The position numbers and the translations under genes were made by a program. Positions 430-31,580 of a DNA stretch of 42,634 bases are shown here, in pieces (the first letter of the stretch is position 1; each line of letters starts with the position of its first letter). Origin of the DNA: a virus. Its lineage: Duplodnaviria > Caudoviricetes. The stretch spans positions 1 to 42,634 of the IMG/VR virus record IMGVR_UViG_3300035102_000151. The stretch is one strand, 5' to 3'. Under the pieces are notes generated by a model. It saw only the letters and a list, made by a program, of their open reading frames with translations, did no database searches and was not told the origin of the DNA.

Positions 430-918
430 TTAATCAATGTTTATATTTTTAATTTTTTTATTATCTTTAATACCATTAGTTTTATATATTGTAATAGTTA
501 AAATACCATTCTTTAAATTAGTTTTGATATTTTCTAAATCAGAATTTTCTGGTAAAATAATTGACCTGATAAATTTAGATTTTTTAATTTCATGACAAAA
601 TTGTTTTTGAATAATTTTTTTATCATTCTTTTTTGCTTTTTCTCCTTTAATTTTTAATATTTTTTCATCTTCATTTAATTCAATATTAATTTCATTTTTT
701 TCTAATCCAGGAACAGTTGCTTCAATTTCATATTCTTTTTCATATTCATTAATATTAAATTTAGGATACCCAGTTGAACTTAATAGTTTAATACTATTAT
801 TATCTGGAATATCAAATTTTGGTCAGAAATCATTAAAAAAAGTATCTGCTGCTGAAATGAAATCATCTTTTAATAATGGAAATAAGGGGGAATTAAATTT
901 TGTTAATTTTGTAGTCAT
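430..918 (-). CDS. small heat-shock protein (Hsp20/alpha-crystallin), 162 aa in code 4
   Basis: Motifs YPKFNINEYEKEYEIEATVPGLEKNEINIE, FIRSIILPEN and NGILTITI. One in-frame TGA at 823-825. AGGAG SD. Absent from the ORF track. Confidence 0.9.
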
Positions 919-998
919 TTTTTTTCTCCTTTTTTGTTATTTATTAATAAATTAACAATTTTAAGTAGTACAAATAATTGTTTCTACTTTTTCATAAA

Positions 999-1006
999 AT
1001 AAATAT
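999..1006 (-). promoter_or_regulatory. putative late promoter ATATTTAT
   Basis: Same motif found upstream of each TGA-containing structural operon. Confidence 0.45.
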
Positions 1007-1046
1007 ATATTAAAATTAAAAAAATATATATTTTTTTTAAAATTTC

Positions 1047-1075
1047 TTGGTTTTTAATAAAAATTTTTTTATATT
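1047..1075 (+). promoter_or_regulatory. sigma70-like early promoter
   Basis: TTGGTT-17 nt-TATATT, a spacing repeated exactly at 9 sites. Confidence 0.75.
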
Positions 1076-1108
1076 ATACATAATAAATATTTAAAAAAGG
1101 AAATTTTT

Positions 1109-1423
1109 ATGAATTGGGAAATATTATATAAAGAAGGTGAAAAAAAAGAATTTTATTTAAATGTTTTTTTCGATTTTTCTCCTGATGAAGATTATGATAA
1201 ATTTACTATAAATGAAATTTACTATAATAAAAAAATAGTAAAAAATATTTCAAATAAAAATATGAAAAAAATTATTAATTTACTTGAAATTGATGAAAAT
1301 AATATTGAAGATGTATTTTTTAATAAATTAAAAGAAGATTATGAAGATTATATTGGAGAAAGTGCATTTTCTTCAACTTATGGAAATATTGATAATTGGT
1401 TAAAAGGAATAAGAATTAATTAA
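1109..1423 (+). CDS. hypothetical early protein
   Basis: ORF with AAGGA SD just downstream of the promoter. Confidence 0.75.
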   Translation: MNWEILYKEGEKKEFYLNVFFDFSPDEDYDKFTINEIYYNKKIVKNISNKNMKKIINLLEIDENNIEDVFFNKLKEDYEDYIGESAFSSTYGNIDNWLKGIRIN

Positions 1424-1452
1424 ATTAATAATAAAAAAAGAAGAAAAATATT

Positions 1453-1815
1453 ATGTTAGTTAATATTAATAAATTATTACAAATTGAAGAATATATTGAT
1501 GATTATGATATTTGGATGCCAAAATATCATAAAGAAATTAAAATTCCTATTTTAAATATAATAATTAGAAAAGAAAATGTTGATAAAAGGTGGTTTGGAA
1601 TAAATTGTATAAAACAATGTATAAATCATTATAATAAACAGAATAATAAAATATATTTTAATTTTAAAAATAATAAATTTTATTATAAACCATATTTAGA
1701 ATATATTTTTCAAGATAATATAATTATTAAAGAATATTTTAATTCTAAAAAAGAAGTAAGAATTAAAATTAAAGAATTACAAAAAAAATATTCAAATTTA
1801 AAAAATAAATTATAA
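1453..1815 (+). CDS. hypothetical protein
   Basis: 120-aa ORF in operon. Confidence 0.7.
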   Translation: MLVNINKLLQIEEYIDDYDIWMPKYHKEIKIPILNIIIRKENVDKRWFGINCIKQCINHYNKQNNKIYFNFKNNKFYYKPYLEYIFQDNIIIKEYFNSKKEVRIKIKELQKKYSNLKNKL

Positions 1816-1859
1816 ATTTTATTATAAAAAATATAAATAAAAAAAATGAAAGTTAAATT

Positions 1860-2357
1860 ATGAAAGTAAGAAAGTATATTAAAGATATTGTAGAATATGT
1901 AAATTTATGTAGAAATCCACATGTTAGTGTTATAGTTGAAAGTCCAAGTTTAGGTGTAACCACATGTTATTACAATAATAAAGAAAAAATTGTAATTAGT
2001 AATATTATTCAAAAAAGAATTAAAAACGGTAATTTTTATTTTATAGAAGAGGAGCCAAAAATGCAAGAAATAATATTAAATCCACCAAAATCAAAAGAAT
2101 TAATTATTAATGATATTATAAATATTGATCATATTGGTTTTATTGAAAATAATGGTATAAAAGGATATATTGATCATATTGGAGGTTGGTTTTATATGGC
2201 TATTAGTGTTCAACAGTGTTATGGGGTATGTAATAAAGTATGGTTAAGTTCAAAAGAAAGAAATATTAAAGATTGTTTAAAATATATTCTTAATGATATT
2301 CAAGCAGCATACAAATTTGAAAATAGAAAAGAATTATTTAGATGGCTATCTGAATAA
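1860..2357 (+). CDS. hypothetical protein
   Basis: 165-aa ORF in operon. Confidence 0.7.
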   Translation: MKVRKYIKDIVEYVNLCRNPHVSVIVESPSLGVTTCYYNNKEKIVISNIIQKRIKNGNFYFIEEEPKMQEIILNPPKSKELIINDIINIDHIGFIENNGIKGYIDHIGGWFYMAISVQQCYGVCNKVWLSSKERNIKDCLKYILNDIQAAYKFENRKELFRWLSE

Positions 2358-2398
2358 CAGAAAAAGAAATAATCAAAAACAAAAATTAAGAAGTTTTT

Positions 2399-3625
2399 AT
2401 GTTTGTAATGTATAACAAAAAAGAACAAAAATTTCCAGTAAAAATTTGGGTAAATGATAAAAATGATATTGAATTAGGAGCAATTGAACAAATAAAAAAT
2501 ATGTCTAACTTACCTTTTATACATAAACATATTTCAATAATGCCAGATACTCACCAAGGATACGGAGTTGTAATAGGAGGAGTATTAGCAACAGAAAATG
2601 TAGTTATACCAAATGCTGTAGGATCTGATATTGGATGTGGTATGTGTTTTATAAAATCTGATTTAAATTATAATAAAGTTTCAAATGATACATATAAAAA
2701 AATTGTTGAAATAATTAAAAGAAAAATTCCAGTAGGTTTTGCTCATCATAAAGAATCACAAAGCGAAGAAAATATGCCAGATGGATCTAAAATAATTAAT
2801 CATTTTAGTGGTCAATTAAATAATTCAATAATATTAGAAGAATATACTAAAGCATTATATCAATTAGGAACTTTAGGTGGCGGAAATCATTTTATTGAAT
2901 TACAAAAAGATGAAAATGATAATTTATGTATTATGTTACATTCGGGATCAAGAAATTTAGGATATAAAGTGGCTAAACATTATAACAATCTTGCTATTGA
3001 TTTAAATGAAAAATGGTATTCTTCAGTACCAAAAGAATATGAATTAGCATTTTTACCATTAAATTCAAAAGAAGGACAAAATTATTTATTAGAAATGCAA
3101 TATTGTTTAGAATTTGCATTAGCAAATAGAAAATTAATGATGTATAGAATTATGGATATTGTAAAAAATTGTATTAAAAAATATGATAAAAAACATATTG
3201 GTTTTGATTCTAATATTTTAAATATTGCTCACAATTATGTTGATATGGAAAATCATTTTAAGAAAAACGTATTGGTTCATAGGAAAGGCGCTACAAGAGT
3301 AAGAAAAGATGAAATGGGTATAATTCCAGGTTCACAAGGAAGTTGTAGTTATATTGTAAAAGGATTAGGAAATAAAGATTCTTTTATGTCTTGTTCTCAT
3401 GGAGCGGGCAGAATTATGTCAAGAACCAAAGCAAAAGAAAAATTAAATTTACAAGACGAAATTAATAAAATGAATAAACAAGGAATTATTCATTCGATAA
3501 ATAACGAAAAAGATTTAGATGAAGCAGATGGAGCATATAAAAATATTGATGAAGTAATGGAAAATCAAAAAGATTTAGTTAAAATTATTCATAAATTAAA
3601 ACCAATTGCAGTAATAAAAGGATAA
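2399..3625 (+). CDS. rtcB: RtcB family RNA 2',3'-cyclic phosphate/5'-OH ligase
   Basis: Motifs MPDTHQGYG, VGSDIGCGM, LGTLGGGNHFIE, HSGSR, HRKGAT, IPGSQG, SCSHGAGR, DEADGAYK. Confidence 0.96.
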   Translation: MFVMYNKKEQKFPVKIWVNDKNDIELGAIEQIKNMSNLPFIHKHISIMPDTHQGYGVVIGGVLATENVVIPNAVGSDIGCGMCFIKSDLNYNKVSNDTYKKIVEIIKRKIPVGFAHHKESQSEENMPDGSKIINHFSGQLNNSIILEEYTKALYQLGTLGGGNHFIELQKDENDNLCIMLHSGSRNLGYKVAKHYNNLAIDLNEKWYSSVPKEYELAFLPLNSKEGQNYLLEMQYCLEFALANRKLMMYRIMDIVKNCIKKYDKKHIGFDSNILNIAHNYVDMENHFKKNVLVHRKGATRVRKDEMGIIPGSQGSCSYIVKGLGNKDSFMSCSHGAGRIMSRTKAKEKLNLQDEINKMNKQGIIHSINNEKDLDEADGAYKNIDEVMENQKDLVKIIHKLKPIAVIKG

Positions 3626-3629
3626 AAAT

Positions 3630-4025
3630 ATGTGTTTAAAAACAAAAGAAAAAAATCCAAAAATAGCAAAAGAAGATATTGTAGTATATGTTATTCGGGA
3701 ACATCGAATTTATTATAATCATCATATATTTTCTCCATTTTTTAATTTTTATTGGAATAAAAACGAATTATATACTTCATCATTATTTCAAAATAAAAAC
3801 GAAATGGATAATAAAATATTTTATGGTTTTCATTCTTTTATAACTTTAAAAGATGCTAAGAAAATGTTAAGAAATAGATTTAATTTTTGTACTTTTTTTT
3901 ATTATAAAATACATAAAGCAATTATTCCAAAGGATAGTTTATATTGGACTGGAAAATTTAATACAATTTTTAAAAGAAATTCATATTGTTCTAATAAATT
4001 AATATTAAAAGAAATTGTTAATTAA
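3630..4025 (+). CDS. hypothetical phage protein
   Basis: MCL...IAKEDIVVY...GFHSF...AIIPK pattern, which I recall from small phage proteins. Operonic. Confidence 0.75.
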   Translation: MCLKTKEKNPKIAKEDIVVYVIREHRIYYNHHIFSPFFNFYWNKNELYTSSLFQNKNEMDNKIFYGFHSFITLKDAKKMLRNRFNFCTFFYYKIHKAIIPKDSLYWTGKFNTIFKRNSYCSNKLILKEIVN

Positions 4026-4384
4026 TGAAAAAATTACTAAAATTTTATATTAGAAAAAATAAAAATTCAATAAAAGATATCAATTTTGAATTAAAAGAAA
4101 AGATTTTTTATATCATTGATAGATATGTAAAACAATATTTTACATATACTAAAAAAGGAAAGAAATTTAATTTTTTAGGTATATTAAATGAAGATATTGA
4201 TAGTATGAATGATGAAATTAATTATGAAATTTTTATTAATAATTTTTTAAATGATAAAAATTTAACTTATGCTGATATTGATTTATTATTAATTGAATTA
4301 AAAAATCATTTATCTAAAGATCATATTTTATTTAAATCTTCTATATATAAAAGAATTCAAAAAAAGTTATATAAAGATGAATAA
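4025..4384 (+). CDS. hypothetical protein
   Basis: TAATG-coupled ORF. Confidence 0.7.
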   Translation: MKKLLKFYIRKNKNSIKDINFELKEKIFYIIDRYVKQYFTYTKKGKKFNFLGILNEDIDSMNDEINYEIFINNFLNDKNLTYADIDLLLIELKNHLSKDHILFKSSIYKRIQKKLYKDE

Positions 4385-4411
4385 AGATAAATAATTAAAA
4401 GGAGACTTATT

Positions 4412-4996
4412 ATGCCAACAGGATATACTTATTATATTTTAAAAGGATGTACATTTAAAGAATATGCTTTAAAATGTGCGCATGCATTCGGGGCAAATTT
4501 AGAATTAAAAGATAAATCAATAGATGAACCTATTCCAGAATATAAAGTGGATTCTTATCATTTAAAAGAATTAAATAAAGCAAAAAAAGAACTAAAGAAA
4601 TTTAAAAAATTAACTTTCAATCAAAAACTAAAGAAAATAGATGAATATAATGATAAGGAAATAGAAAATTACAATAAAAAATTAAAAGAATATTATGAAA
4701 ATAAAAAGAAATATGAATTTATGTTAGAAAAAGTTAAAAATTATAATCCACCAACAGAAGATCATATTGGATTTAAAAAATTTATGAAAGAACAAATTGA
4801 AAGTTCAATGGAATGGGATTTAAATTTACCAAAATTTCCAAAATCAATTTCTATAAAAGAATGGGAAAATAAAGAATTAAATAGTATAATTTGGGAAATT
4901 GATTATCATAAAAAAGAATATGAAAAAGAAAAACAAAGAGTAAAAAGAAATAATAAATGGAATAAAAAATTGGTTGATAGTTTAGAGGATGAATAA
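4412..4996 (+). CDS. conserved phage coiled-coil protein (MPTGYT N-terminus)
   Basis: AGGAG SD. MPTGYT...TFKEYALKCAHAFGA...PPTEDHIGFKKFM. Confidence 0.85.
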   Translation: MPTGYTYYILKGCTFKEYALKCAHAFGANLELKDKSIDEPIPEYKVDSYHLKELNKAKKELKKFKKLTFNQKLKKIDEYNDKEIENYNKKLKEYYENKKKYEFMLEKVKNYNPPTEDHIGFKKFMKEQIESSMEWDLNLPKFPKSISIKEWENKELNSIIWEIDYHKKEYEKEKQRVKRNNKWNKKLVDSLEDE

Positions 4997-5032
4997 AAAT
5001 ATAAAATAAATTAAAATTTTAATAAAAAGTTC

Positions 5033-5061
5033 TTGTTTTTTATTATAAACTTCCTTATATT
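5033..5061 (+). promoter_or_regulatory. sigma70-like early promoter within a ~90-bp repeated promoter/SD cassette
   Basis: TTGTTT-17 nt-TATATT followed by ATGTAAATAAG...AAGGAG. Confidence 0.8.
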
Positions 5062-5101
5062 ATATATGTAAATAAGGTTAATTAAAAAAGGAGATTTAAA
5101 A

Positions 5102-5362
5102 ATGAAGTTACAAACAAAAAATGAAGTTGTACAAAATATTATGCATGATATTGAAAATTTAAAATTTGTCGATTATCATATTTTTCCAACAAAATATAAT
5201 AATTATTTGGATAATATCAATTGTAAAATCACTGAAATTTTAATTAAACATAAAAATGAATTAGAAGAATTATCAAAAGAATATATCAAATTAGCAGATA
5301 AAACTGCTATGTGGGATAAAGTAGGTCAAACTTATTATGAATGTAAAAGGAGGATTAAATAA
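5102..5362 (+). CDS. hypothetical early protein
   Basis: AAGGAG SD. Confidence 0.75.
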   Translation: MKLQTKNEVVQNIMHDIENLKFVDYHIFPTKYNNYLDNINCKITEILIKHKNELEELSKEYIKLADKTAMWDKVGQTYYECKRRIK

Positions 5363-5670
5363 TGTTTAAAAAATTATTTTCAAAAGAAAAAGAAATTGAT
5401 AATCGTGAATTTAGAAGAGCAATTTATCATTTTTCAAGATGGTTTTCAGAAAAAATTAATATTCATTATATTGTTAATGTAAAAACCATAAAAACAAAAA
5501 ATCAAATAAAAGTAATAATTGAAACTCATTTTCCTGGATTATTAATTGGAAAAAAAGGAGAAGTAATTAAACTTTTAGAAGCATTTATACAAGAGGATGT
5601 CGGTATTAAAAAAGGTATTATTATTGTAGAAGTAGTTGAATCTAAATTATGGATGAATTTGTATAGATAA
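5362..5670 (+). CDS. stand-alone type-II KH-domain protein resembling the ribosomal protein S3 KH domain
   Basis: IKVIIETHFPGLLIGKKGEVIKLLE (GxxG loop; compare S3 IHTARPGIVIGKKG). AGGAGG SD. Confidence 0.75.
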   Translation: MFKKLFSKEKEIDNREFRRAIYHFSRWFSEKINIHYIVNVKTIKTKNQIKVIIETHFPGLLIGKKGEVIKLLEAFIQEDVGIKKGIIIVEVVESKLWMNLYR

Positions 5671-5695
5671 TAAGTTGATTAAAAAGGAGAAAAAG

Positions 5696-5920
5696 ATGAA
5701 TTTAAATAAATATAAAGAATTAACAACAGATCAAATAAATTCAGAAAAAAAGATACAATTAATCAATTTAAAAATTGATTTATTAACAGAAATGTCATTA
5801 ATTAATAATGAAGCCATAATTACGAATTTTGTTAATGATAATTTTTTAAAAGGAAGATATTTTCAAACAGAAAAAATTATAAATATAATTGACTGTAAGT
5901 TAAAAAAATTAGATAATTAG
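5696..5920 (+). CDS. hypothetical protein
   Basis: ATG at 5696 after AAGGAG, preferred over TTG at 5675. Confidence 0.7.
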   Translation: MNLNKYKELTTDQINSEKKIQLINLKIDLLTEMSLINNEAIITNFVNDNFLKGRYFQTEKIINIIDCKLKKLDN

Positions 5921-5997: not shown

Positions 5998-6005
5998 ATA
6001 TTTAT
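5998..6005 (+). promoter_or_regulatory. putative late promoter ATATTTAT for the endonuclease
   Basis: Late motif on the plus strand ~46 nt before ATG 6052. Confidence 0.4.
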
Positions 6006-6051
6006 ATTAAATATTATAATAAATTCAGCAATTTAAATAGGAAAAAATAAA

Positions 6052-8031
6052 ATGAATAAAGATTTAAAATGTAAAATCTGTAATAAAAAATTTAAAAATA
6101 CAGGATGACTATCAAGACATTTAAATAAAGAACATAAAATATCATTTCAACAATATTATGACAAATATTTTTTAGAAAATAAAAATGAAAAATATTGTAA
6201 TAATCCATCATGTAATAATAAATCTAATTTTAAAAATTGAAAAGGATATTCAAAATATTGTTCTTCAAAATGTGCAAATGAAATAATAAATTCTGATAAA
6301 AATGTTATAAATAAAAAAATACAAAATATGAAAAAAACTATAAAAGAAAAATATAGGGTGGATAATATATCTCAATCAAAACAATGAAAAAATAAATGTA
6401 AAAAAACATGAAATAATAAATCTAAAAAGGAATTAAAAGAAATTTCAAATAAATCCAAACAAACAAAATTAGAAAAATATGGAAATGAAAATTTTAACAA
6501 CATAGAAAAAAATAAACAAACAAAATTAGAAAAATATGGAAATAAAAATTTTAATAATAGAAATAAATTTAAAAATACTATGTTAAAAACTTATGGTGTA
6601 GAATGGGCAATGCAATCAAATGAAATAAAAGAAAAACAATTAAATACATTAAATGAAAAATATGGAGGAATAGGATTAAAATCTAATATAATAAAAGAAA
6701 AAATACAAAATACTAATTTAGAAAAATATGGTTCTAAATCCGCTTTAGGTAATAAAAATATTCGCAATAAAATAAAAAATACAATGCAGGAAAAATATAA
6801 TGGAATAGGATTTGGTTCTGAAATAATTAATAGAAAAATACAAAATACTAATTTAGAAAAATATGGTAATAAATTTATTTCTAAAAGTGAAATTATAAAA
6901 AATAAAATTAAACAAAATAATTTAAAAAAATATAAAGTTGAATATTTTACTCAATCTTTATATTATAAAAGAAAAAGATTTGAAAAAAGATATAAAAGAT
7001 TATTAAAAAATAAATTTATTAAACCATTATTTAATTTAGATGATTTTTCAGGAATTGATAAAAATTATAAATTTAAATGTTTAAAATGTAATAAAATTTA
7101 TAAATCTACTTTTATAAATCATAATCATTTACCTTTATGTTCTAATTGTTTTAAATTTGATGGAAATATATCAAGTTATGAAAAAGAAATTAGATTTTTT
7201 ATTGAAAATGAATTAAATATAAAAAATATACAATATAATAAAAGATTAATAAATAAAAAAGAATTAGATATTTATATACCAGATTTTAATTTAGCGATTG
7301 AATTAGATGGAATATATTATCATTCAGAAATTTCAGGAGGAAAAGATAAAAAATATCATTTAGAAAAAACCAAATTATGTAATAAAAAAGGAATTAAACT
7401 ATTACACATATGAGATATTGAATGAATAAATAAACAAGATATTGTTAAATCTATTATTAAAAATAATTTAAATATATATGATAAAAAAATAGGAGCCCGA
7501 GAATGTCAAATTAAATTAATTATTGATAATAAAATAAAAAATCAATTTTTAAATAAAAACCATATACAAGGTGAAGATAAAAGTTCTATTAAATTAGGAT
7601 TATTTTATAAAAATGAATTAGTTAGTTTAATGACATTTGTAAAATCTAGATATAATAAAAATTATGAATGAGAAATTTCAAGATTTTGTAATAAATTAAA
7701 TTATGTTATAATTGGTAGCGCTAATAAATTATTTAAACATTTTATTAAAAATTATAATCCAAAATCAATTATAACATATTCTGATATAAGATTTTTTGAT
7801 GGTAAAATTTATGAAAAATTAAATTTTGATTTTTTAGAAGATACAAATCCAAATTATTTTTATATTAAAGGAAATAATATTTATTCGAGAATTTATTTTC
7901 AAAAATATAAATTAGAAGAAAAAATAGAATATTTTGATAAAAATTTAACAGAATGAGAAAATATGCAACTGAATAAATTTGATAGAATTTGAGATTGTGG
8001 AAATAAAAAATATATATGAAAAAAGGACTAA
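6052..8031 (+). CDS. Hef-like homing endonuclease (C2H2 Zn finger, KYG repeats, Zn ribbon, PD-(D/E)xK/DUF559-like nuclease), 659 aa in code 4
   Basis: CKIC...HLNKEH, LEKYG repeats, ELDIYIPDFNLAIELDGIYYHSE, LLHIWDIEW, RIWDCGNKKY. About 9 in-frame TGA at Trp positions. Confidence 0.88.
6457..6867 (+). repeat. coding KYG repeats in the endonuclease
   Basis: aaacaaacaaaattagaaaaatatggaaat x2 and aaaatacaaaatactaatttagaaaaatatggt x2. Confidence 0.75.
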
Positions 8032-8071: not shown

Positions 8072-10342
8072 TTACGCACCAGGAAATGTAGCACCTGTTG
8101 GCATAATATTAAATTCAATCGGAATAAATTCTGCTACTTCTGTAGGTTGTAATCAAATTCTTCCTCTCATTATATTTCTATCAATATCAGTATTTGAAAT
8201 AGTGGTATCATCGCTCATTTCAACTTGAAAATCATATAATCCATTTTCATTTTTAATATCATTTAAAATTGGATTAACTAAAGATTTAAATCTATTTCAT
8301 GTTTGAACATCACTTTGTTCAAATACTAAATATCTTGTTACTGATGCTATTAATTTTTTTATTTTTAATAACATTCTTCTAATATTAACTCTATCTAATT
8401 TTTTATTTGTTGTTCCCGCTAATAAAGTTTTTTGTCCTCAAACTACTGGTGAAATAGTATTTGGAAAACTCGCTATTGGATTAATTCTTGCTTCATATAA
8501 TTTATCTCTATCTGTTTGATATAATCTTTTATATGTTGCAATAGCATTTGTTAATCCACCTCTTGTTAAACCAGCCGGTGCATATCATTCATGAGCCATA
8601 TTATCATTATATGCTAATACCCCGGGAATTAATACTGAAGGTGGAACTCACACATTTTTATTATTTTCTTCATCTTTAATTTTTACATAAGGATAATAAG
8701 TTGCAGCATATGAATTATCAATAGGTTGAATTGTTTTAATAACAGTATTTATACTATCCTCTTTAGGACCTGGATCAATAACTGCTAAAGCATCTCCTCT
8801 ATCTCTACATTTATCCATTAAATAAGAAGTAACTGCACTATGTTGTCTATGATTACATTCTGGAGTTACCATTAAATTAACATCAAATTCTTCAGGATTT
8901 CCAACAGTATCAATTGCTTTTCTATATTCAACAGATCCAGAAGTAGTTGCTGTTGTAAATGTTGATTGGCTTACAACTGCTAATCTTGGATCATATCCAT
9001 CAAATCCATTTTGAAATCCAAAGGAAAATTTTAGTTTTGTAGAATCTGTATTTGCTAATACTAAACTACCAGAATAAGTATTATTAACATATTCAATACA
9101 ATTAGATAATAAGAAATCAGTACTTGCATTTGCTGCATTTGTTGGTAAAAAAGTATGATAATTATCAACATTAGCGGCAGTAAAATCTTCACCGAAATAT
9201 ACTTTATCATCATATTCACTATTATATGATTGTGATAATTGATATACTGGATCTGGAGTATTTGAATTATATTTCTTTAAATTTTTAAATCCAAAAGGTA
9301 CTGCTTCTTTTGGTATTGTATTTAAATTTTTCATATCAATTCTAATATATTCAGAAATATTTTCATAATCTCCATAAACAGTAATTTTACCTTCAGAATC
9401 TGTTACTGTATATTGATCACCAATTCTTCTTGCAATATAATCTGGAGAATTTTCATTTAAATCTAAATTACTAAATGTTTCAAGAATAACAGGATTAATA
9501 TCAGTATCATTATATTCTCTTACAATTAATGTAAATTTACCATAATCAGAATTAGCAATATCATCTGCTGGTTTTATATCAGAAATACTTATTTTAATTT
9601 CTTGATTTGCTGCAGTTCCATCTGCTAATGTTTGAATATCAAATAATTCATGATTTGTAGTTCCAAAAGTTTGAGATATAATAGTAGGGCTACTTGCATT
9701 TGAAAATCCATTAGTTGTTATTGCCGCAGATGTGGAAGAAGTAATTGAACTTTCAGTTAATGTTCCATTACCATCGATTCCTGCTAATGATTTTGATACT
9801 TCAGCAGAATATACATGATCTAAATAAACATCATAAGTAGTATTTTTTGGATTTGTTCCAATAATATTACCTAAATAATTTGTATCTGTATTTCTTAATG
9901 AAACATTTGAAAAAGTAGTTTCACCACCAGATTGACTAACATATAAATCAAAATCATCTAATGTTAAAGTAGAACCTGTTACTTTCATATTGATTGAAGC
10001 ATCTGATCCATAGGTTGGTCTAATTACTGCTAATAATTCACTACCAGAAGTAATTTCTCCTACATTATTATATGTAAAAGCACCGCCACCTAATACTCTT
10101 ACGAATGTCATATTTCCTGCATTTTCTAAATAATCTTTTGCTGCATATGAACATAAATATTCAGAATTAACATTCCCAAACCATTTTTTAAATTCAGTAA
10201 AATTATTTACTATGGTAGGTTTAAATGCAGGTCCTTTTGGTGAACGACCAATAATTGCTCCTCCAATTTCGCCTAATGCTTGAGGAAGAAATCCTTGATC
10301 CTTTTCTTGTGTAAATACACCAGGACTTACCATTTTTGCCAT
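8072..10342 (-). CDS. gp18: contractile tail sheath protein (T4 gp18-like), 756 aa in code 4
   Basis: SPGVFTQEKD...GPAFKP N-terminus. Reading through TGA gives VWVPPS, EWYAPAGLTRG, INPI, VWGQKTL, LDRVNIRR, FEQSD..TWNRF, IWLQPTEVAEFI. Confidence 0.96.
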
Positions 10343-10388
10343 TATTTTTCTCCTATTTTTAAACAGTTAATTTTATTATTATTCTATT

Positions 10389-10396
10389 ATAAATAT
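10389..10396 (-). promoter_or_regulatory. putative late promoter (ATATTTATAATAGAAT)
   Basis: Extended sequence identical to that upstream of the scaffold/capsid operon. Confidence 0.65.
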
Positions 10397-10477: not shown

Positions 10478-10506
10478 TTGTTTTTTAGTAGTTTATTTAT
10501 TATATT
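10478..10506 (+). promoter_or_regulatory. sigma70-like early promoter
   Basis: TTGTTT-17 nt-TATATT. Confidence 0.75.
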
Positions 10507-10536
10507 TAATATGTAAAAAATAAAGGAGTATTGATT

Positions 10537-10770: not shown

Positions 10771-10772
10771 AT

Positions 10773-20407: not shown

Positions 20408-20418
20408 CTTTATAAAAT

Positions 20419-20864: not shown

Positions 20865-20890
20865 TTTTATAATTATTTTTTTTTTATTAA

Positions 20891-23800
20891 TTATAATTCT
20901 ATTTCAAATTCAAAATCTATTAAAGCATTTGTATTATTTTTTATAGTTTCTGGAGAATCTAATAATTTACCTGCATATATAGTTCCTCCACCAGGAGATT
21001 GCAAATATAATTTTTTAATATCAATATCTCCCCCAGATTCATTTCTAATTGTTCTATGTACTTTATGAGAAATTGAATATGGATTTAAATCAAATCAATA
21101 TACTTTTATTCTATTACCTATATATGGTCAAAAAACTCCTGAACCATTATTATAAACAATTTCATTAGAAATTGATGATATTGAAATTTCATCTAATGTA
21201 GCATAAAAATCCTCATTTGGAAATAAAATATATTCAAAGTTTTTTGTACTTAAATCTAATCGAAGAATTTCTGGATAAGTTTCTATTACTTGTTGTAATA
21301 ATCCATCAGTTCATAATCCTCATCCTATTTCATTATATCGACCGAAAGAAATTAAATGTCATTCGTTCCCATCATTAATTTCAGTTTCATAAAAATTTAT
21401 AGGAGAACCATCTATATGAGTTATAAAAGTTGCTCGTGAATCATTTCAATTAATTTTAGGATATCCAAAATTATTTATATATATAGATATAGTGGATGAT
21501 TGAACAACAGAACCATTACTTAAATTTTCAGAATACAATTTTAAATTAAATAAATCAAAATTACTATTTTTTAAACCAGTATCAGATCCAACAGTTTTTA
21601 TTCATATATGAATAAAATTTGAATCATTAGTCATAGGATTAATTCATAAATCTTTTACTGGAATTTTATTTTTTATAATTAAAGGATTACCATGAGTTCC
21701 TGTATATCCATAATTTGAAAATCCCGAAGATCATTTATCAAGATTTATTCCATTATAGTTATTATGTATATCTTTTAAATCAGAATCAAATTTAAAATAA
21801 CTAATTAAATTATTAGTTGAAATAATAGAACCACTAATACTTCCTGAAATATAAGTTCTTCCGCTTCCAGAATTATATGAATCTAAAATTTCTTCATCTG
21901 TTAATATTCGTTTTCAAATTGATGTTTCATCTAAACTACCTGAATAATCAAAATTTGAAGGAGTACTTATTTCAGTTCCAACAAATAAATCATTTGTAAA
22001 ACCCGTAGAAGAAACATATCCATTAATTTCTTCTATTCCATTTTTAAATATTTTACAAATATTATTAAAATAATCTAATGTTATTACAATATAATATCAA
22101 GTATTATAAGATAATGAATCAATAGAAATTACTGGATTAGTACTATTTATAAAATTTAATTTAAAAAAATCTATATCTATATCTGATGTTTCTATAGTTA
22201 TTTTTCAAGAATTTTCTTTATAGAATAATGTACCAAAATTATAAGAAGGAGGTAAAGGTTTTATTCAAAAAGAATACGTATAACTCATATTATTTGTGGT
22301 ACCTTCTTGTCCAATAAATTCAGAATCAAGTAATTTTATTCTTTGAAAATTATTATCAATTAAAAATGAATTATTAATTATACCAGAATTAAATCTATTA
22401 TCATATTTAAATTCAAAATTATCTATAATTTTATTATTTAAATTTTTATTCATATCTCAATAACTATAAATATTTTGAATATTATATCCTTCTGGGGTTC
22501 CTTGATTAAGTCCTTCTATTTTTAATTCATAATAATAATCACTTCCTGTTGCTAATCATTGAACAGATAATAAAGTAGGTTTAGTTCAAGTATCAATATA
22601 ATAATCAGATCCATTTACTGTATATTCATAATTTTCAATTGGATATTTATATATACGAGTTTTATTATTTTCTGATATTAAATTATTTGAAAAATCTTTT
22701 ATTCTTAATGTAACATCAATATAATTAGCAAAACTATCTGGATGTAATGCAATTAAATGGGATAAAATATAATATTTATTTTCTATTAATTCTTCATTAC
22801 TTATTTTTTGTTTAATATATTCAATAGAATTACTTAAAATTGGCTGTATTTCATATCCATAATTTTCAAAAGATGCTAAACTTTGATAAATATTATCTAT
22901 TACTATTCAAGATGAACAACTAATTATATATGGAGTTGCTCAATATGGATTATGTAAATAAGAAGTTAATAAATTAGAAGTTTTATCTGAATAATCTTCA
23001 TCTGTAGATTCATTACTAAAATAGAGTAATTCTCCAGTATTTTTTCCATGTTCAATTGGATTTTCTGGAATTGATTCTTGACTTGAAATAGGATCATTAT
23101 CAATAGATAAAATTATTCCTTGATTTTCATCTCGTAATCCGGCAATTTGAATTTTATTTGTTGTACTTATTCCATTAAATAAATCTGATAAAAAATCTGC
23201 AAAATTTTGTAATAAAATTCATTGATTGCTTTCATTTTTATTTATTCTAATTTCATAATTAATAGTTACATTATCATCTGGCATTAATATAAATGGTGAA
23301 GACAATAAATCTCTTGCCATTAAAATTGAAAATCTATTAAATTGTACACCACTATCACTATTATAAGAATCTTGGGTAGGAACAGATCAAAGAGTTATAT
23401 CATGAATAGTTTGAGTTATTGAAGAAATATTAGTAAAAGTTTTAGAAATTTTTCAATATAAATAATTATTATCATCATCTTCTAAAAAATCTGAATATAA
23501 AACATCATTAGTATATGAAATATCAAATCTTGAAATAAGACCACCAGGATAACTTAAAATATTATTATTATGATTATAAGAATCATCATAATCCCCTGCA
23601 TATTCTAATTGTCCATTAATTGGATGACAACTGGAATAATCTCCTAATGAAACAGGTCTATTACAATTTCCTAAATGAATTCCCCCTCCCCTTGAAAGAG
23701 AATCTCCTCTTTTAGTAGGATCTAAACATAAAAGACTTTTTATTTCACTTTGAGTAATAGTAACATTTCGGGTTCTTCAAGGATAACGAAAAAATATATT

Positions 23801-23992
23801 AAAAAGATCGACTCCTTTTATACTGGTAATTGAATTATTAGCAAATAAAGATACTAATAATTTATGAAATTGATAAACAAAAGAATCTGATTTTTTTTCA
23901 TAAATTTTTTTATAATTTCCAGTTTTATTTATTTTTCCATAACTTACATATAATTCTAAATTTTTTAATATATTTCCACCGTTAAAATTCAT
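20891..23992 (-). CDS. large baseplate/tail-fibre-like protein with LamG domains, 1033 aa in code 4
   Basis: Single frame joins the track fragments. YSFWIKP...NTWYYIVIT...GSLDETSIWKRILTDEEI. Paralogous to 23992..25584. Confidence 0.8.
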
Positions 23993-25584
23993 TAACCAAC
24001 TTTCATTTTAAAATTAAATTTTATATATAATACTTCATCATTTGAAACAGTAACTGGGGTATCTAATAATTTACCTCCTATGGGGTTATAAGATTCTTCG
24101 GCTCTTAAATAAATTTTTCTAACAGTAATATCCCCCCCAGATTCATTATGTAATAGTCTATATACAGATCCCATTTGATCATTTGCTTGAGTTTTTATAT
24201 CTTTTATTTTTACAATATCTCCTGAAGATCCAGATAGAAAATTTATTTTTAATTTATTATTTGTTTCTGTTGCTTCTCATGCTAAACTTGATGTTATAGC
24301 ATTAGTACTTCCAGTTTTTAATAAAAATAAATTACTATTATAAATAGTTGAAGTATTTTCATTATTTCTAATTTCTAATTTTGTATAAATAGGATTAGTA
24401 TTTGATGATGAAGCATAACTAATTAAATCAGAATTATAACTATTACTAATAATTAAATTAGAAGCATCTGTCATAATATATGCATTATCAGTATTTAATG
24501 TAACTTCGTATTCATTTGTATTAAAAGACATTGAGCAATTATTAATTGATCAATTTCCAGTATTATCAACAGAACAATTATCTGAAATATCTCCCCCCCT
24601 TGATCCAGAACTATCATATCAATCTCATTCTCTTAAATGTTCATTGCTATAATAAACTAATTCTCCAGTTCCTTTTCCATGCGGTATTGCTCCTGCCATA
24701 CCACTTTCATCTTTTATAATTGAATTAGAATCAGTCGATGGTACTATTCCTCGTACTAATCGTAAATCTGTCAATTTAAATTTATCCTCTTCATTAGTAT
24801 CATTTGTTCTCATTAAATAAACTATATTATAAAAAAACTTATATATTCAATATCAATTTCCTAATTCATCTGGAGTTAATCTTATTTGATATGAAACTGT
24901 TTTTGTTTCATTATTTGGTATTGTAAAAGTGGTAGATAAAATATCTCTTGCTAATAAAAATCCCATTCCTGGCGAGGGCGGAGTGTTTATGGTATTTCAT
25001 AAATATAAATATCTATAATAAATAGAAGAAATTAATCCTAATTCAGATACTTCAATATCTTCACCACTGTGATTTGTAAAATCTCTTGTTATTAATCATG
25101 AATAATAATTAGGTTGAATATTTATTGGGTTTGATACATTTCTTTGTCCATAAATTAATTGTCCTAAATCAGTTCCATTTTGTATAAAATTTTCTAATCT
25201 AACATCATTCATTTTTACTGGAGTAGTTCCAGTACCAAGTGAAATACAATTATAGTCTATATCCGCAGAGCTATAATCTAAGCATAAAGCAGTTGACTCA
25301 GGGCCTGTAGTATAATCTCACCTTCACTGTACATCTTTTTGAATTAAATCATCATCAAACCCACTAAATTTAAATGATAAATTTCTTCAATAAAACATCA
25401 TTACAGATATAAATTTATGAAAATTAGTAACAAAAGAATGTCCTTCTTCTTCATATTCTTGAATATAATTTCCATTTTTATCTTTATGACCATATCCAAT
25501 ATAGATTTTTGGATTTATAGTATTAGTTATTTCTATTAATTTAGATGATTTATTTGATAAATTTATATTACTTTTAAAATTCAT
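23992..25584 (-). CDS. baseplate/tail-associated protein, 530 aa in code 4
   Basis: Four track fragments share one frame and are separated only by TGA. LGTGTTP...FTNHSG...ELGL...LLARD. Confidence 0.8.
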
Positions 25585-25592
25585 TTTATTCC

Positions 25593-26066
25593 TTAACTAT
25601 TTGTTTGAATTTTTCAATAAATTGTTAATTGATCAGTATTTTCTAATGGAACTGCTGAAGCAAAAATATAATCCGCATATCCAACATTAAAACTACTTGA
25701 AGCATTTTCATAATTAACCCCCATACTGGCGCTTAACATAAAATTACTTCCTGAAGATATATGTACTCCTTTTCATGTATGATAATATAATCCAGTTTCA
25801 TATAATGATGAGGAAGTTTCTAAAATTGATCCTGAATTATTAATTAAAAAAATTCCATCCTTTCCTTCAGTTGGAGGATTTGATGATTGTGATTCAAAAT
25901 ATCCATTTATTCCCATAGATTGACTAACATTTATTGTATTTGTTTCCATACAATTTCTAACAAATAAATTTAAAGCTGTATTAATACTATTATGATCTTC
26001 TTCTATTATTTGATCATTTTTATAAACAGTAACAGTTCCTTTTAATTTTAATTGTTCATTATTCAT
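25593..26066 (-). CDS. hypothetical structural protein, 157 aa in code 4
   Basis: LKGTVTVYKND...DQLTIYWKIQ. 2 TGA. Confidence 0.75.
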
Positions 26067-26110
26067 ATTTTAATTTCCTTTTTTTCTAAAAATTTTTACT
26101 ATTCTTTTTT

Positions 26111-26118
26111 ATAAATAT
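26111..26118 (-). promoter_or_regulatory. putative late promoter
   Basis: ATATTTATA in the intergenic gap. Confidence 0.45.
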
Positions 26119-26137
26119 TTTATTATTTTTATTTATA

Positions 26138-26869
26138 TTAAAATATTTCTTGTCCATTTATTTTTTTAATATTAGTTAAATATTTTCCGTTTATTTTTTT
26201 AATGTTAGATAATGGTATATTATTTACTTTATTAAATTTTAAAAATTTACCTTGTCCATCATTATATAAATCTTCAATTTCACTAGTCGATAATACTCTA
26301 TTTCATATTCCTACTTCATCAATTTTTCCATTTGTTCAACCAAATTCAGGAGGATCGGAAAATCCAGAAGTTCCAATACAATCAATAGTATTATTACTTT
26401 TTATTGGGGTTGAATAATTAAAACTACTTTTTTCTTCATTATTAATCTGTAAGGAAATTTGATATTTATTTCATGTAGCAGTAATCATATTTCATTCATT
26501 AATATTTAATGAAGAACCAGTTAATTGAAAATAATCTGATGATATATTTCTTACTGCAATATATGATTGACTTGTATAATTTCTTGTACCAATGCTTAAA
26601 TAATTATTTTTATATAAAGAAAGAAAATTTTGATAAAATTCAGTCGTACCACCTTTAAAATAACACCAACAATTAATAGTAAATGATGTTAAATTAGAAA
26701 TTTCATTAATTACAGAATAACTACTTGAACCGTTATAATTCAAACAATTGTTATATATACCCGATTTAATATTAGTATTATAAGTAGATCCAGTTATTAA
26801 ATTAATACTATCTTTAATGGTTGAATCGTTTAATGAATAATAACTTATTAATCCATCTTGTAATGACAT
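26138..26869 (-). CDS. LamG/concanavalin A-like domain protein, 243 aa in code 4
   Basis: GLISYYSLN, FTINCW, NEWNMITATW, GKIDEVGIWNRVLSTSEI. C-terminal NIKKING repeats. Confidence 0.88.
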
Positions 26870-26881
26870 TTTTTTATTCCT

Positions 26882-27343
26882 TTATATTAATTCTATATAT
26901 TGACTAGAAGGATCAAAATATAAACTACTTGTATTAAAACTTCTTCCAATTTCTCTAACAATTTCATTAGAACCAGTTGGTTCATAATTTTGAATACTTC
27001 CTGTGTCAGTTCCTACATAATATTTACTACCAGTTTCTAAATTAGTAAAATTTTCAAAATAACCTCTTAAAAATATTGAACTACTATAATATGATAATCC
27101 TAATAATCCATCACATTTACTACTTGAAATTGCAGTAGCATTATATCATATATTATCATTATTTAAATAAACTAAATTATTATGATTTACTGTACTATGA
27201 GTTGTTTGCCCTATTAAATATTCATTTTTTAAATATTTTGTTTGTATTTTAAAATTTAAATTATCATTAGTTTCAACTACTATCATATCAGTATTTCTTA
27301 CAATATTTAATCCATTTAATTCACTTATTTTTTGATCCGCCAT
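26882..27343 (-). CDS. putative virion fibre/decoration protein, 153 aa in code 4
   Basis: MADQKISEL N-terminus. LVYL...W...G.KYYV...G.I....P......V..IG pattern. Confidence 0.7.
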
Positions 27344-27357
27344 TTTTTATTCCTTTT

Positions 27358-28893
27358 TTATTCTTCGTCTACTAATAAAATTCTACTATTATCATCTGCT
27401 AATAATATAAAACTATCATTTGCTAATTTTAATTTATTTCCTGTGGTTTCTTTTTGATATGTAATTTCATCTGATAAAATTAAAGTTTCAATTAATCTAT
27501 ATTTATCTCTAATTTCTATAAAGGTATCATTTAATATTATATTTTCGTATAATCTATAATTATCTCTAATTTCTAAAAAATTATCCGATATTATTAAATT
27601 ATCTTCTTTTGATTTAATTAAATTAAAATTTAATGTATCATTTGTATTTATAATATCTTCTTTTGATTTAATTAAATTAAAATTTAATGTATCTAATGTA
27701 TTTATATTATTATTAAAAGTATCATTGTGAATAATATCTTTTCTTTGTTTATCTGCTAATAATAAATAATTAGTAATAAAAATAGGGCCTTGATATTGAA
27801 ATATATCATATAAATATAAATTTTCTTCTATTAAAAAATTTGGTTGATTAATTGTAATAGAAAATAATGAACTTGGATTTCAATTATAATGAATACTTGA
27901 AGTTTCTGAAATTAATTCAAAGTCCATCATATTAGTATTGATACTTGATGATGAATTTTGTATTCTGGAAAAAGATTGACTTGTTTCAAAATAATTATCT
28001 AAAGAAATAGTAAATTCAATTTTATCTGAAATTTCAAATGTTTGTAATTCATATGTCAAATAATTTCGAATTTGATTAATAACAAAAGAAGGATCTGCCG
28101 TAAATACTTCTTCAATATCTCCATATTTAATATTTCCTTGTTTATCTTTTGCATAAGATCTATAAAAATATGTTGTTAATGAACTTAAATTTAAAGCAGT
28201 AAATTTATGACTTCCATCTCCAAGACTTCCACTTGTCATTATTTTTTTTTCAAAATTTGTTAAAGTTAAATAAGGATAATCATTATTATTAAGTATTGTT
28301 GCATTTTTATTAAATATTAAAATATTTGAATATCTAATTAAAGTATCATCGATTATAGATTTTACATAAAATCCATATTTTTGTCCATTTTTTAATCCAT
28401 TTCAAAAAATAAATCCTGTTTCACCGGAATTAATATTTTCTGCTATTCCAATTAATTCATTTGTTATATAATTATAAAAATATAAATCCGCTTTTATTCC
28501 AGTATAAGTAATATCTGCACTTAATCTTACTGGACTTTCATGCGGAGGAGATAAAAATTGATCAGAATCATACGGGGTATAATAATTTATTTTTTCTGAT
28601 AAATGCAAATATTCATTAATATTAATAATAAAATTTGTTTTTTCAATATATTCTTCAGTATTAATAGCAGTTAAATTTGTAGGAGCAAAAGATTCAACAT
28701 CTTCTAATTTACTTACTAATAATCCTACTTCTTGTAAAGGTCTTGCCCCAGCATTATTAATTCTTGATTCCACATTTGAAATAAAATTTTGACCAACTTT
28801 TCCTCTTGATAAATCAGGTTCCGTTGTTATATCATACCAAGAATCCCCTCAGTATCAATTAAAAAATTCTGATTGTTTCATATAGTCTGACAT
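27358..28893 (-). CDS. structural protein with FN3-like segments, 511 aa in code 4
   Basis: TAATG-coupled start MSDYMKQSEFFNWYW. LNLSSLTTYFYRSYA...YG. Confidence 0.75.
27500..27700 (-). repeat. coding tandem repeat (~54-57 bp unit)
   Basis: atcttcttttgatttaattaaattaaaatttaatgtatc is exact at ~27601 and ~27655. ttatctctaatttcta occurs twice upstream. Confidence 0.8.
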
Positions 28894-31175
28894 TAACTTA
28901 CCTCGATGTATTCTCCATTATAATTAACTTTAATTCGTGTATCATCAATATCACAAATAAAACAATCTGCAATTCTACCTTTATACTTAAATTGTATAGT
29001 GGAATTTAAAGTAAAATTATTTTTAGTTCAGGTTCCCTTATAATCTTTAAATTCTAATACTGATCCAGTAGGTAAATTAGATGGAATAGTTAAAGTAACT
29101 TCATTATCTGAGGTATCTACTAAATAACTACCGGTATAAATAGTATCATTTGATTTTTTTAAATATCATTTAGGTCAATTTATATAACTTCCAGAAGATA
29201 TTATATTTCCTCCACTTGAACCAGTTTCAAATCCTATAAATTCATGATAATTAGAATATAATTGTAATAAATTATTATCAAAAGAATTTATATATTCACC
29301 AGTATCATCTTTTAATAAAATTTTAAAAGAAACAATATCATTATTAATTTGATTTGGCATTAAATAACTGGTACTGTAAGTTTTTACAATTTCATCATCT
29401 ATTGTATCTACCCCTAATAATTTTCAATTTTCAATTGTTTGATTAAAATAAGTATTTCTATAAAAATTAATATTATCTACTGTTAAATAATTTTTTTTAT
29501 TAGGGTTCGGAGTTGCTGGAGGATTATAAGCAGGATCTGCTGGAGGAGTTATTCTGGGATAATTATTAAATACAATTTCTAATTTAATTTTATTAATTAA
29601 TTCTTCCTCATTACTTAAATCGAAAGTAAATTCATTTGTTGTTCAATTTTCAATTGCTTTATTTTCTTCAGTTTTTCATATTTCATAACCTCCAGTAATA
29701 CTATTATATTTTAATAATCTTGCTCTATATCAATAAAATACATTAGAACATTTTGAATCAATATTTAATTTATATTCTTCTGGAAAAACATAAAAAGGTT
29801 CAGATGTAATTATATTTACATAAGGAACAGTAGGAAAACTTTCTGGTCTGTTTGGTCCTTTTAAAGAAAAAGAATTTTTATCACTATCAAAAGGGGAATT
29901 TGAATCTATTTGTCAATTACCTTCAACATCTTTAAAAGATAAAGTATTTAAATTTACTTGATTTCATCCTTTAAAATAATTATTTTTATTATTTCCTCTA
30001 AAATGTCCAATTTCTTCTAATAAATTATTTTTTTTTCTTTCAAATTTTCTATATAAAATAATATTATCTAAATCTATTCTATAAGAAGGCGGAGGTAAAC
30101 AAGAAATAATTAATTTTGTATTAATGGCGTTTTCATTATTTAAATTAAATTCATATAGAAATTGATTTCAATTATTATCTAAATCTGGATTATCATTTAA
30201 ATTACTTCCAGAATAAATAGTAGCAATATTATATCAAAATGAATATTCTTCATCATATTCATTTTGTTTATACAATGAAAAATTAACATTATATGAATTA
30301 TAACCGGGCATTGAAGATGATATATTTTCATTAATTCTCCCTTGAAATTTTAAATAATATGAACCAGAATATACACTAAAAGGAGTTTTTTGAGATAAAG
30401 TATAAATATTTTCATTTGACCCAGTTGGAGATGAAAAATATAAACTTGTTGGATGATCTATATCTAATTCTCCATTTATTTCAGATTTTATTCAATTATT
30501 ATTTTCTACTTCCCATCCTAAAGGATGAATTATATTATTTTTAAATCCTTCTGCTGCAAAATGTCCATTAATAATTAAATTATTTGAAGTTAAACTTGTA
30601 TTATTTAATATTTGATAATAAACTTCTATAGAATTTAATTTACCTGAATAAACTTCTAAATTACTTAATCTTATAATAGCATAACTATTTCCATTATCAA
30701 TATTTTCAGAAATACTATCAATTTGTGGATAATTTATAAATACTGGGGTAGATGAATTTTTAATATTTTTATTAATAACAATATCGGATTTTCAAATAAC
30801 ATTTAAATTATTTAATCCCCCAACTTTTTCAGAATACCCTTTAGCAGTTCCTGCTGCATAAATTGTTGCAATACCATTATATAACCTATCATCAATTTCA
30901 AATCAAACAATTCATCCAGGTTCTGTTATTTTACTTTTAACCCCATTACATTTAATAGGATTTCCAATAGAATCTTCTATTTCAATAAATATTTCACTAT
31001 TTTGTACTAATTTATTTGAGCCATAAACAATAAAATTATGTCTACCTTTACTATATTCTTTATTTGAAAATCCATAAATTTTAAAATATTCTGAATTTGG
31101 TTCTTTATCTAAAATTTTGTATTTTTTATTTTTTAAATTTCATTTTTGAAAAGTTGTTATAAGCCCAGTTGACAT
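28893..31175 (-). CDS. large structural (baseplate-like) protein, 760 aa in code 4
   Basis: GGAG SD and late motif upstream. Frame length is divisible by 3 and includes track fragment 29175..29360. Checked codon by codon only for the N-terminal third. Confidence 0.72.
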
Positions 31176-31215
31176 GAATTATTTTTTTCTCCAATAATAT
31201 TTTAAATATTCAATA

Positions 31216-31223
31216 ATAAATAT
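31216..31223 (-). promoter_or_regulatory. putative late promoter
   Basis: ATATTTATTATTGAA. Confidence 0.6.
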
Positions 31224-31279
31224 TTTTTTATAGTTTTTTAACATGAAAGAAAAAAAATTAAAATTTTAATAAAAAGTTC

Positions 31280-31308
31280 TTGTTTTTTAATAAAAAATTC
31301 ATTATATT
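31280..31308 (+). promoter_or_regulatory. sigma70-like early promoter (repeated cassette)
   Basis: TTGTTT-17 nt-TATATT, flanks nearly identical to 5011-5104. Confidence 0.8.
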
Positions 31309-31346
31309 TATAATGTAAATAAGATAATTAAAAAGGAGAATTTAAA

Positions 31347-31580
31347 ATGAATATTAAAATAGAAACAAGTTTTAAAAATGGATTTCCGGAATCAATGATA
31401 TATATTAATAATATAATTAAATATATTTGGGCAGGAATAGGAAATGAAAAACATTATTTAATAGATGATAATGGTAATACAATTTATTTACCAATTAAAA
31501 TTATTAAAAAATTAACATATTCAAGAAAAAAAGAAGATATTGAAAAATATTTAATAAAATATATTATAAATAATTTATAA
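31347..31580 (+). CDS. hypothetical early protein
   Basis: AAGGAG SD, own promoter and terminator. Confidence 0.75.
   Translation: MNIKIETSFKNGFPESMIYINNIIKYIWAGIGNEKHYLIDDNGNTIYLPIKIIKKLTYSRKKEDIEKYLIKYIINNL

Follow-up and report, generated by a model that had tools for sequence, protein, structure and literature searches.

The DNA discussed here raises the question of why interleaved genes of one AT-rich phage genome should treat the codon TGA so differently. The stretch (IMG/VR record IMGVR_UViG_3300035102_000151, positions 1 to 42,634; hereafter the window) comprises 42.6 kb with a G+C content of 22% and a CheckV completeness of 13%. It is a fragment of a large contractile-tailed, T4-like myovirus with genes for a gp23-type capsid protein, a sheath, gp13- and gp15-like neck proteins and lectin-type tail proteins, and it also carries RtcB, DenV, Hsp20, homing endonucleases and 16 tRNAs. 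TGA means tryptophan in the virion genes and other genes behind late promoters and is nearly excluded behind host-type promoters. We consider it probable that this is because UGA is a stop for the host during early infection, until the phage switches on UGA-to-tryptophan decoding. The model itself has already been published (Borges et al. 2021); the present case adds a new lineage and habitat, a comparison of promoter classes and a lead offered by a sigma-like gene.

TGA and TGG are divided between two promoter classes

The counts of an earlier note on this DNA were reproduced exactly for the 18 plus-strand genes behind TTG-N20-TATATT promoters, which contain 25 TGG codons and no TGA and end in TAA (16 genes) or TAG (two genes). 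The 24 genes behind the motif ATATTTAT indeed use TGA for most of their tryptophan codons (111 TGA:12 TGG), and 22 of them contain it. Three minus-strand exceptions described previously are also real: the genes at 37676-39433, 36973-37398 and 36370-36969 have TGA:TGG counts of 4:3, 1:4 and 1:0. The avoidance of TGA by early genes, which had been called complete, is so in the plus-strand set but not across all 30 early-class genes (6:43), although 27 of these lack TGA entirely. Exceptions beyond those already described are the major capsid gene (2:7) and a GC-rich insert at 18120-19659 in a late operon (0:14).

A Fisher test between the two classes, the proposed check, gave p=5e-23, and p=9e-18 when the TGG-only insert was counted as late. 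Permutation at the gene level across the 43 genes with tryptophan codons gave p=5e-5, which is the floor of 20,000 shuffles. Restricting the window to the first gene behind each motif left 4:9 for early and 39:3 for late genes (p=2e-5), all four of these early TGA codons sitting in one homing endonuclease. The share of A-ending codons for Lys, Glu and Gln is 0.93-0.98 in both classes, and the G+C content at third codon positions (GC3) of early genes is 0.07-0.09. Since the early genes are equally A-ending and their plus-strand set nevertheless lacks TGA, composition does not account for its avoidance. Drift under a uniform code 4 is thereby ruled out, as the earlier note had argued.

The promoter CTTG-N20-TATATT, a sigma-70-type -35/-10 pair with 17-nt spacing, occurs at nine sites, all of them intergenic; 30 Markov simulations gave an expectation of 0.3 and never more than 2. 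By count ATATTTAT is weak (55 seen, 40 expected, simulation maximum 52). It lies 48-54 nt ahead of the start codon in five of eight late operons. Among 102 distinct relatives, 87 have TATTTAT no more than 120 nt ahead of the sheath gene, compared with 7 to 62 for each of four control words. We infer, from the analogous late promoters of T4, that ATATTTAT is the late promoter of this phage family. "Early" and "late" are used throughout as labels drawn from motifs and gene content.

The classes are distributed over the window as follows, with counts of in-frame codons.

197..1006, minus strand: late-type motif, Hsp20 gene (1 TGA) and a small open reading frame (ORF)
1047..5920, plus strand: two early-type operons (promoters 1047 and 5033), 10 genes; 0 TGA, 18 TGG
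2399-3625, plus strand: RtcB, in an early-type operon
5362-5670, plus strand: uS3-like stand-alone KH protein, early class
5998..8031, plus strand: late-type motif and homing endonuclease; 10 TGA:1 TGG
8072..10396, minus strand: late-type motif and tail sheath; 5 TGA:1 TGG
10478..10955, plus strand: early-type promoter and two small genes; no Trp codons
11016..15125, minus strand: late-type operon of seven genes (endonuclease, gp13-like neck protein, gp15-like sheath stabiliser and others); 22 TGA:0 TGG
15150..17423, plus strand: early-type promoter and five genes including DenV; 0 TGA, 6 TGG
17435..31223, minus strand: late-type tail/lectin operons (motifs 20864, 26118 and 31223); 70 TGA:3 TGG in 11 genes outside the insert
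18120..19659, minus strand: GC-rich two-gene insert in the tail operon; GC3 0.37, 0 TGA:14 TGG
31280..31580, plus strand: early-type promoter and one gene; 0 TGA, 1 TGG
31695..34760, minus strand: cluster of 16 tRNA genes, 15 found by default ARAGORN and Rfam and tRNA-Ala(TGC) at a relaxed threshold; none with anticodon TCA
31907..31979, minus strand: tRNA-Trp(CCA), anticodon stem fully paired, U11-A24 pair
33250..39483, minus strand: early-type operons (promoters 39483, 37666 and 35871), 12 genes; 6 TGA:18 TGG
39496-39523: terminator-like hairpin between the minus-strand early operons and the capsid operon
39554..42389, minus strand: late-type motif, acidic scaffold-like gene (1 TGA) and gp23-type major capsid gene (2 TGA:7 TGG)

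All six TGA codons of the minus-strand early operons are confined to the three exceptional genes, four of them in the homing endonuclease at 37676-39433. The GC-rich insert was probably acquired recently from a genome with the standard code. Its 403-aa protein resembles phage tropism-determinant and FGE-type proteins (26-30%); no template repeat for this tropism-like gene was found in the window or in the related contig G005 described below. The tRNA-Ala(TGC) at 32079-32150 (minus strand), missed by default ARAGORN and Rfam, has a G3-U70 pair and an atypical D-arm. The ORFs at 35899-36310 and 32340-32610 (minus strand) look frameshifted or broken in T/A runs, as assembly errors or pseudogenes would.

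TGA is read as tryptophan

Coverage by ORFs of at least 60 aa is 0.91 under code 4, 0.57 under code 11 and 0.62 under code 15, and the code-4 gain exceeds the 10% by which Borges et al. recognise alternatively coded phages. In the sheath, TGA codons 565 and 586 stand opposite W in 118/119 and 119/119 homologues, and the other three sites face W or aromatic residues in close relatives. Capsid codon 167 is opposite W in 98/119 homologues. Capsid codon 144 faces G in 106/119, but W in nine of the 12 nearest. When recoded records were compared with proteins of G006, a standard-code relative, W was the commonest residue facing TGA in every one of them, and in contig G005 it occupied 22 of 33 listed alignment columns. 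These alignments show that TGA is tryptophan in the phage of the window. In public collections its proteins for capsid, sheath and sigma are cut short by code-11 gene calls (P0003, P0121 and P0257).

The division recurs in related phages

Scans with the early-promoter pattern matched only one further contig, G005 (49.5 kb), whose promoter elements are 78-92% alike to those of the window. The right end of the window (42508..42634, 127 nt) is 100% identical to an interior segment of G005 (L259:2570-2696). Judged by sequence, G005 belongs to the phage of the window or to a very close relative; the junction at the overlap branches, and the part of G005 with the sigma-like gene is not on the path that directly continues the window. 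With operon ends set by judgement and only 35 of about 80 genes assigned to a promoter class, 20 early-promoter genes of G005 have 8 TGA:30 TGG, and the ratio in the 15 genes behind late motifs is 25:1 (p=8e-10). Given the judged ends and the roughly 45 unassigned genes, the test on first genes only is the cleaner one (early 3:23, late 20:1, p=4e-9). A sugar-modification cluster of 14 genes in G005 (L257:5083-18816, with GT1, GT2, NeuB and a cytidylyltransferase) has 66 TGA:3 TGG, which suggests late expression and perhaps virion glycosylation.

A more distant relative, G001 (105 kb, 36% G+C), was divided by Pfam function and synteny into 14 structural genes (27:54) and 35 replication or metabolism genes (4:181; p=4e-12); its DNA polymerase, ribonucleotide reductase (RNR) and similar genes also shun TGA. 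A sheath tree places the window and G001 within a separate clade (support 100/100); DNA was available for three of its members, and all three are recoded. G002 (L247-L253) is a second phage of the same family with TGA as tryptophan, outside this clade. Most of the family uses the standard code: an in-frame TGA was present in the capsid or sheath match of only 7/160 viral loci. G006, which is complete, had been a candidate for a complete recoded relative and was rejected because none of its 17 matched segments contained a stop; it shows a code-4 coverage gain in two 20-kb stretches.

The closest cultured capsids are those of Flavobacterium phage vB_FspM_immuto (43.6% identity) and a Microcystis phage. 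The hosts of Flavobacterium and Microcystis phages use code 11, which speaks for a host that stops at UGA. Words of the window were found in four sequencing runs that are not marked as its source, three from oil-field metagenomes and one from a subsurface metagenome, at 25-43% of sampled words; nine of 15 listed runs had small shares and were set aside, and no RNA dataset was among the listed runs holding window words.

Several further elements of the relatives may be recorded here. G002 has three tandem Gly-type tRNA-like genes (L251:1817-2058). In G005, an RNA-ligase-like gene ending within an intein domain is followed by a late-motif, TGA-rich endonuclease gene (L259:321-2419); a block of 33% G+C in the 20-23% G+C contig, with a TGG-only radical SAM gene, looks foreign (L258:12000-16200); and a tRNA-like element whose anticodon loop is replaced by a loop of 60 nt is flanked by two early promoters and a long gene free of TGA (L259:7768-7893).

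What the host reads at UGA

The ends of early genes bear on the code of the host. In the 19 complete early genes of G005, six of eight TGA codons fall in the last ten codons, compared with one of 24 TGG codons (p=2e-4). They take the forms TGA-TAA, TGA-GGA-TAA or an overlap with the next ATG, and G001 has one ATGA overlap and one gene ending in TGA-AAA-TAA. A terminal TGA is either a backed-up stop or a dispensable tryptophan, and either would mean that UGA terminates early in infection. This suggests, indirectly, that the host stops at UGA. In standard-code relatives TGA ends 56/606 long ORFs. Other clues to the host were uninformative: the GC-rich-insert protein found just two 28% relatives among genome contigs (Endozoicomonas and Tannerella), relatives of RtcB were only near 40%, and single-protein scans found no close relatives of window proteins.

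If the host instead used code 4 throughout, the TGG codons of early genes would reflect efficiency or recent arrival from standard-code genomes, and in favour of this reading no early gene of the window ends at TGA. However, early genes are AT-adapted, with a GC3 far below the 0.37 of the true insert, and their plus-strand set still stands at 0:25. The DNA polymerase, RNR and similar genes of G001 avoid TGA as well, and TGA is concentrated at early-gene ends. We therefore regard a code-4 host as very improbable.

A host with code 25 (UGA as glycine; Gracilibacteria or Absconditabacteria), whose glycine the phage later changes to tryptophan and whose UGA early genes would shun in both roles, has in its favour that TGA-avoiding phages have been matched to such hosts (PMC10746230) and that glycine faces capsid codon 144 in those 106 homologues. 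At that very site, though, the nearest homologues mostly have W, and G is absent from the listed residues facing TGA in the comparison with G006 proteins. Terminal TGA and ATGA overlaps suit a stop better than glycine, and no early TGA stands at a glycine site. Phages of code-25 hosts are recognised by TGA as glycine in about 90% of genes; here TGA faces W or aromatics, and early genes are mostly free of it. We regard this reading, too, as very improbable.

Some observations weigh against a host that stops at UGA and a later switch. Eight TGA codons lie inside early-class genes, six in the window and two in G005, and all six early TGA codons of the window are of this inner kind. When the window and G005 are pooled, the tail test drops to p=0.064; it is weaker because the early-class TGG codons of the window are themselves tail-rich, 10/43 lying in the last ten codons, which hold 7% of codons. 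Possibly these are former TGA stops that turned to TGG before a backup TAA. No preference was seen for any base following TGA (p=0.28). The motif-based labels, the assignment of only part of the G005 genes to a class and the fruitless searches for a decoding apparatus reported below count on the same side.

Selection against TGA or for it

In the explanation that we prefer, host RNA polymerase would transcribe the TTG-N20-TATATT genes at once. An inner TGA in these genes would truncate their products and be purged, while one at the very end would be harmless. An early product, most likely a suppressor tRNA-Trp with anticodon UCA encoded in the unseen part of the genome and charged by the tryptophanyl-tRNA synthetase (TrpRS) of the host, would then outcompete release factor 2 (RF2). 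Genes behind ATATTTAT would be translated only after this switch, and AT mutation pressure would fill their tryptophan codons with TGA. UGA would probably still be read more slowly, and the retention of TGG in the capsid gene would be explained by this. A block on premature virion proteins would be a consequence of such a scheme, and selection for that block is a separate claim.

The earlier note had proposed that UGA decoding acts as a translational gate for virion proteins. Other parts of its interpretation fared better, in that TGA as tryptophan is borne out, drift under a uniform code 4 is excluded and a UGA-stopping host is favoured. The share of TGA among late tryptophan codons is 0.90 in the window and 0.33 in G001, compared with A-ending shares of 0.93-0.98 and 0.62-0.73. 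Because it does not exceed the neutral level, the only selection demonstrated is that against TGA, which acts on early genes and on the capsid gene. The latter differs from other late genes (2:7 against 109:5, p=4e-7), its invariant tryptophan sites are TGG, and the capsid match of G003 has 0 TGA:11 TGG. Orthologous glycosyltransferases stand at 26:1 in G005 and 1:27 in G001, so that the extent of recoding tracks lineage and G+C content, and the insert indicates that a late operon functions with TGG-only genes.

An adaptive gate, in which late TGA is positively selected to stop premature virion proteins and a TGA in a sigma gene also delays late transcription, is compatible with the preferred explanation. 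The presence of TGA in nearly all late genes would fit it, as would a TGA at codon 154 of 240 in a sigma-70-like gene of G005, where the nearest relatives have W, and TGA in both homing endonucleases, comparable to the Agate intron endonuclease of Borges et al. Against it stand the neutral share of late TGA, the avoidance of TGA by the capsid gene, the dependence of recoding on lineage and G+C content, and a G001 sigma orthologue without TGA. On this balance we hold positive selection for a gate to be possible but doubtful. The control for drift thus moves the reading towards early genes selected to avoid stops, rather than late genes selected to carry them, a point of relevance to the debate on recoding as a regulatory adaptation.

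A sigma-like gene and the nature of the probable switch

The gene at L258:7217-7939 of G005 encodes a 240-residue protein with TGA at codon 154, and code 11 yields a 153-residue product (P0257). Codon 154 is opposite W in G001 as well as in the three full-length relatives that are nearest, and opposite Y in 68/81 more distant matches; the relative P0262 ends at the same place as the 153-residue product. Weak but concordant evidence marks the protein as sigma-70-like. Pfam Sigma70_r2 matched five of 11 aligned members (best E 1.7e-4), the G005 protein itself being unmatched; Atlas features of the G001 orthologue matched sigma-named clusters at 0.97-0.98; and in Foldseek the top rows were sigma chains (best E 0.11). 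The sigma-like gene of G005 is preceded, in this order, by a variant promoter (TTG-N20-TAAATT), a tRNA-like RNA lacking a D-arm and a small gene whose codon 4 is TGA. The tRNA-like RNA (L258:6764-6831) has an acceptor stem, a long hairpin and a T-arm; its folding z-score is -3.4, and it has no Rfam match and no TCA in its loop.

If this gene encodes a late sigma factor, with a role like that of T4 gp55, late transcription would wait for the code switch at a single-codon checkpoint. The absence of TGA from the G001 orthologue means that a recoded sigma is no clade-wide rule. One could go further and suppose that a sigma factor for ATATTTAT promoters is cut after region 2 by UGA until suppression, so that promoter class and code form one cascade. 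No UCA tRNA would then be needed, UGA being decoded with the help of a CCA tRNA that is modified, of a tRNA-like RNA that has escaped recognition or of a protein that blocks RF2, for instance the uS3-like KH protein. We think this quite unlikely.

No credible UCA suppressor tRNA was found in the window, G001, G002 or G005 (13-71% complete by CheckV) with ARAGORN (at default and relaxed settings and with introns allowed), with Rfam or with a custom scan for an anticodon arm and a T-arm, which recovered two of three known CCA tRNAs as a control. The 16-tRNA cluster of the window and the 28-tRNA cluster of G001 are both internal to their contigs and both lack TCA. The RF-1 family was found in 0/7 and tRNA-synt_1b in 0/4 records, all of them fragments, and no UCA tRNA, RF1 or TrpRS was found in the 92 kb seen. 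Two candidates were rejected. A "tRNA-SeC(tca)" called at a relaxed threshold (21766-21853) falls within a tail gene and lacks the features of a tRNA. The A24 of the window tRNA-Trp was considered as a Hirsh-type mark of suppression, and the same D-stem occurs in the standard-code G006. A9C and/or G24A occur in 2,414 of 3,438 bacterial tRNA-Trp genes with a 4-bp stem (PMC13092985), and this commonness, together with G006, makes A24 non-diagnostic of suppression.

There may thus be no cognate suppressor, the phage tRNA-Trp(CCA) reading UGA near-cognately with the aid of a modification or of late RF2 inhibition. The two TCA-free internal clusters would fit, and A24 in the window and C9 in the G001 tRNA-Trp are the positions of the read-through mutations G24A and A9C (PMC13092985). 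A uS3-like KH protein is common to the window and G001 (L245:5243-5551) and was found at no other searched locus. On the other side, the A24 D-stem is shared with standard-code G006, both changes are common among bacteria, the anticodon stem is fully paired, and a gene with 22 TGA codons demands very high read-through (0.5^22 is about 2e-7). Near-cognate decoding is our second choice and on its own an unlikely one. As Borges et al. detected a suppressor in only a minority of code-4 genomes and most of this genome is unseen, an undetected suppressor tRNA is the first choice for the switch, and we lean towards it with some reserve.

Comparison with known systems

The same model, with standard-code early genes and recoded late genes, was proposed by Borges et al. 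(10.1101/2021.08.26.457843), who found a TGA suppressor tRNA in 35% of code-4 genomes. Like phages of the Agate, Jade and Sapphire type, the phage studied here has TGA as tryptophan, recoded structural genes and replication or early genes in the standard code. As in those code-4 phages, recoded modules are scattered, homing endonucleases are recoded and the suppressor often goes undetected. The code-change module of Jade (RF1, TrpRS and suppressor tRNA beside a lysis cassette) was not seen in the fragments searched; nor was a terminase found in the window. The words "promoter" and "sigma" do not occur in the main text of Borges et al., where neither a promoter-class test nor a recoded sigma gene is described. 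A literature search, with subscription papers and the Borges supplements outside its scope, returned nothing on TGA recoding in environmental or huge phages or on a sigma factor with an in-frame stop, and no recoded phage from an oil reservoir was among the matches listed. Recoding concentrated in hallmark genes has been reported for jumbo phages (PMC13037316).

The tRNA-Trp shares A24 (window) and C9 (G001) with the Hirsh-type G24A/A9C and the 4-bp-stem tRNA-Trp(CCA) readers of UGA (PMC13092985). Unlike the 4-bp tRNA of the Blastocrithidia type, that of the window has a fully paired anticodon stem, with no unpaired top. TAG-recoded crAss-like phages, for which there is proteomic support (Peters et al., PMC9523058), also read a stop as an amino acid in late structural proteins. 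They differ in that TAG is glutamine, suppressor tRNAs are annotated, the phages are gut podoviruses and peptides have been detected, whereas the phage of the window is known from its sequence.

In its capsid and in the TATTTAT upstream of its sheath gene the window resembles Flavobacterium phage immuto and the aquatic gp23-type myoviruses, which mostly use the standard code, whereas the window belongs to the separate recoded sheath clade. The phages of Borges et al. come from gut microbiomes, and the window comes from oil-field and subsurface metagenomes. Temporal stop-codon recoding is thereby extended to a subsurface, T4-like lineage outside the gut, in which the comparison of promoter classes provides a clean test with an internal control for drift.

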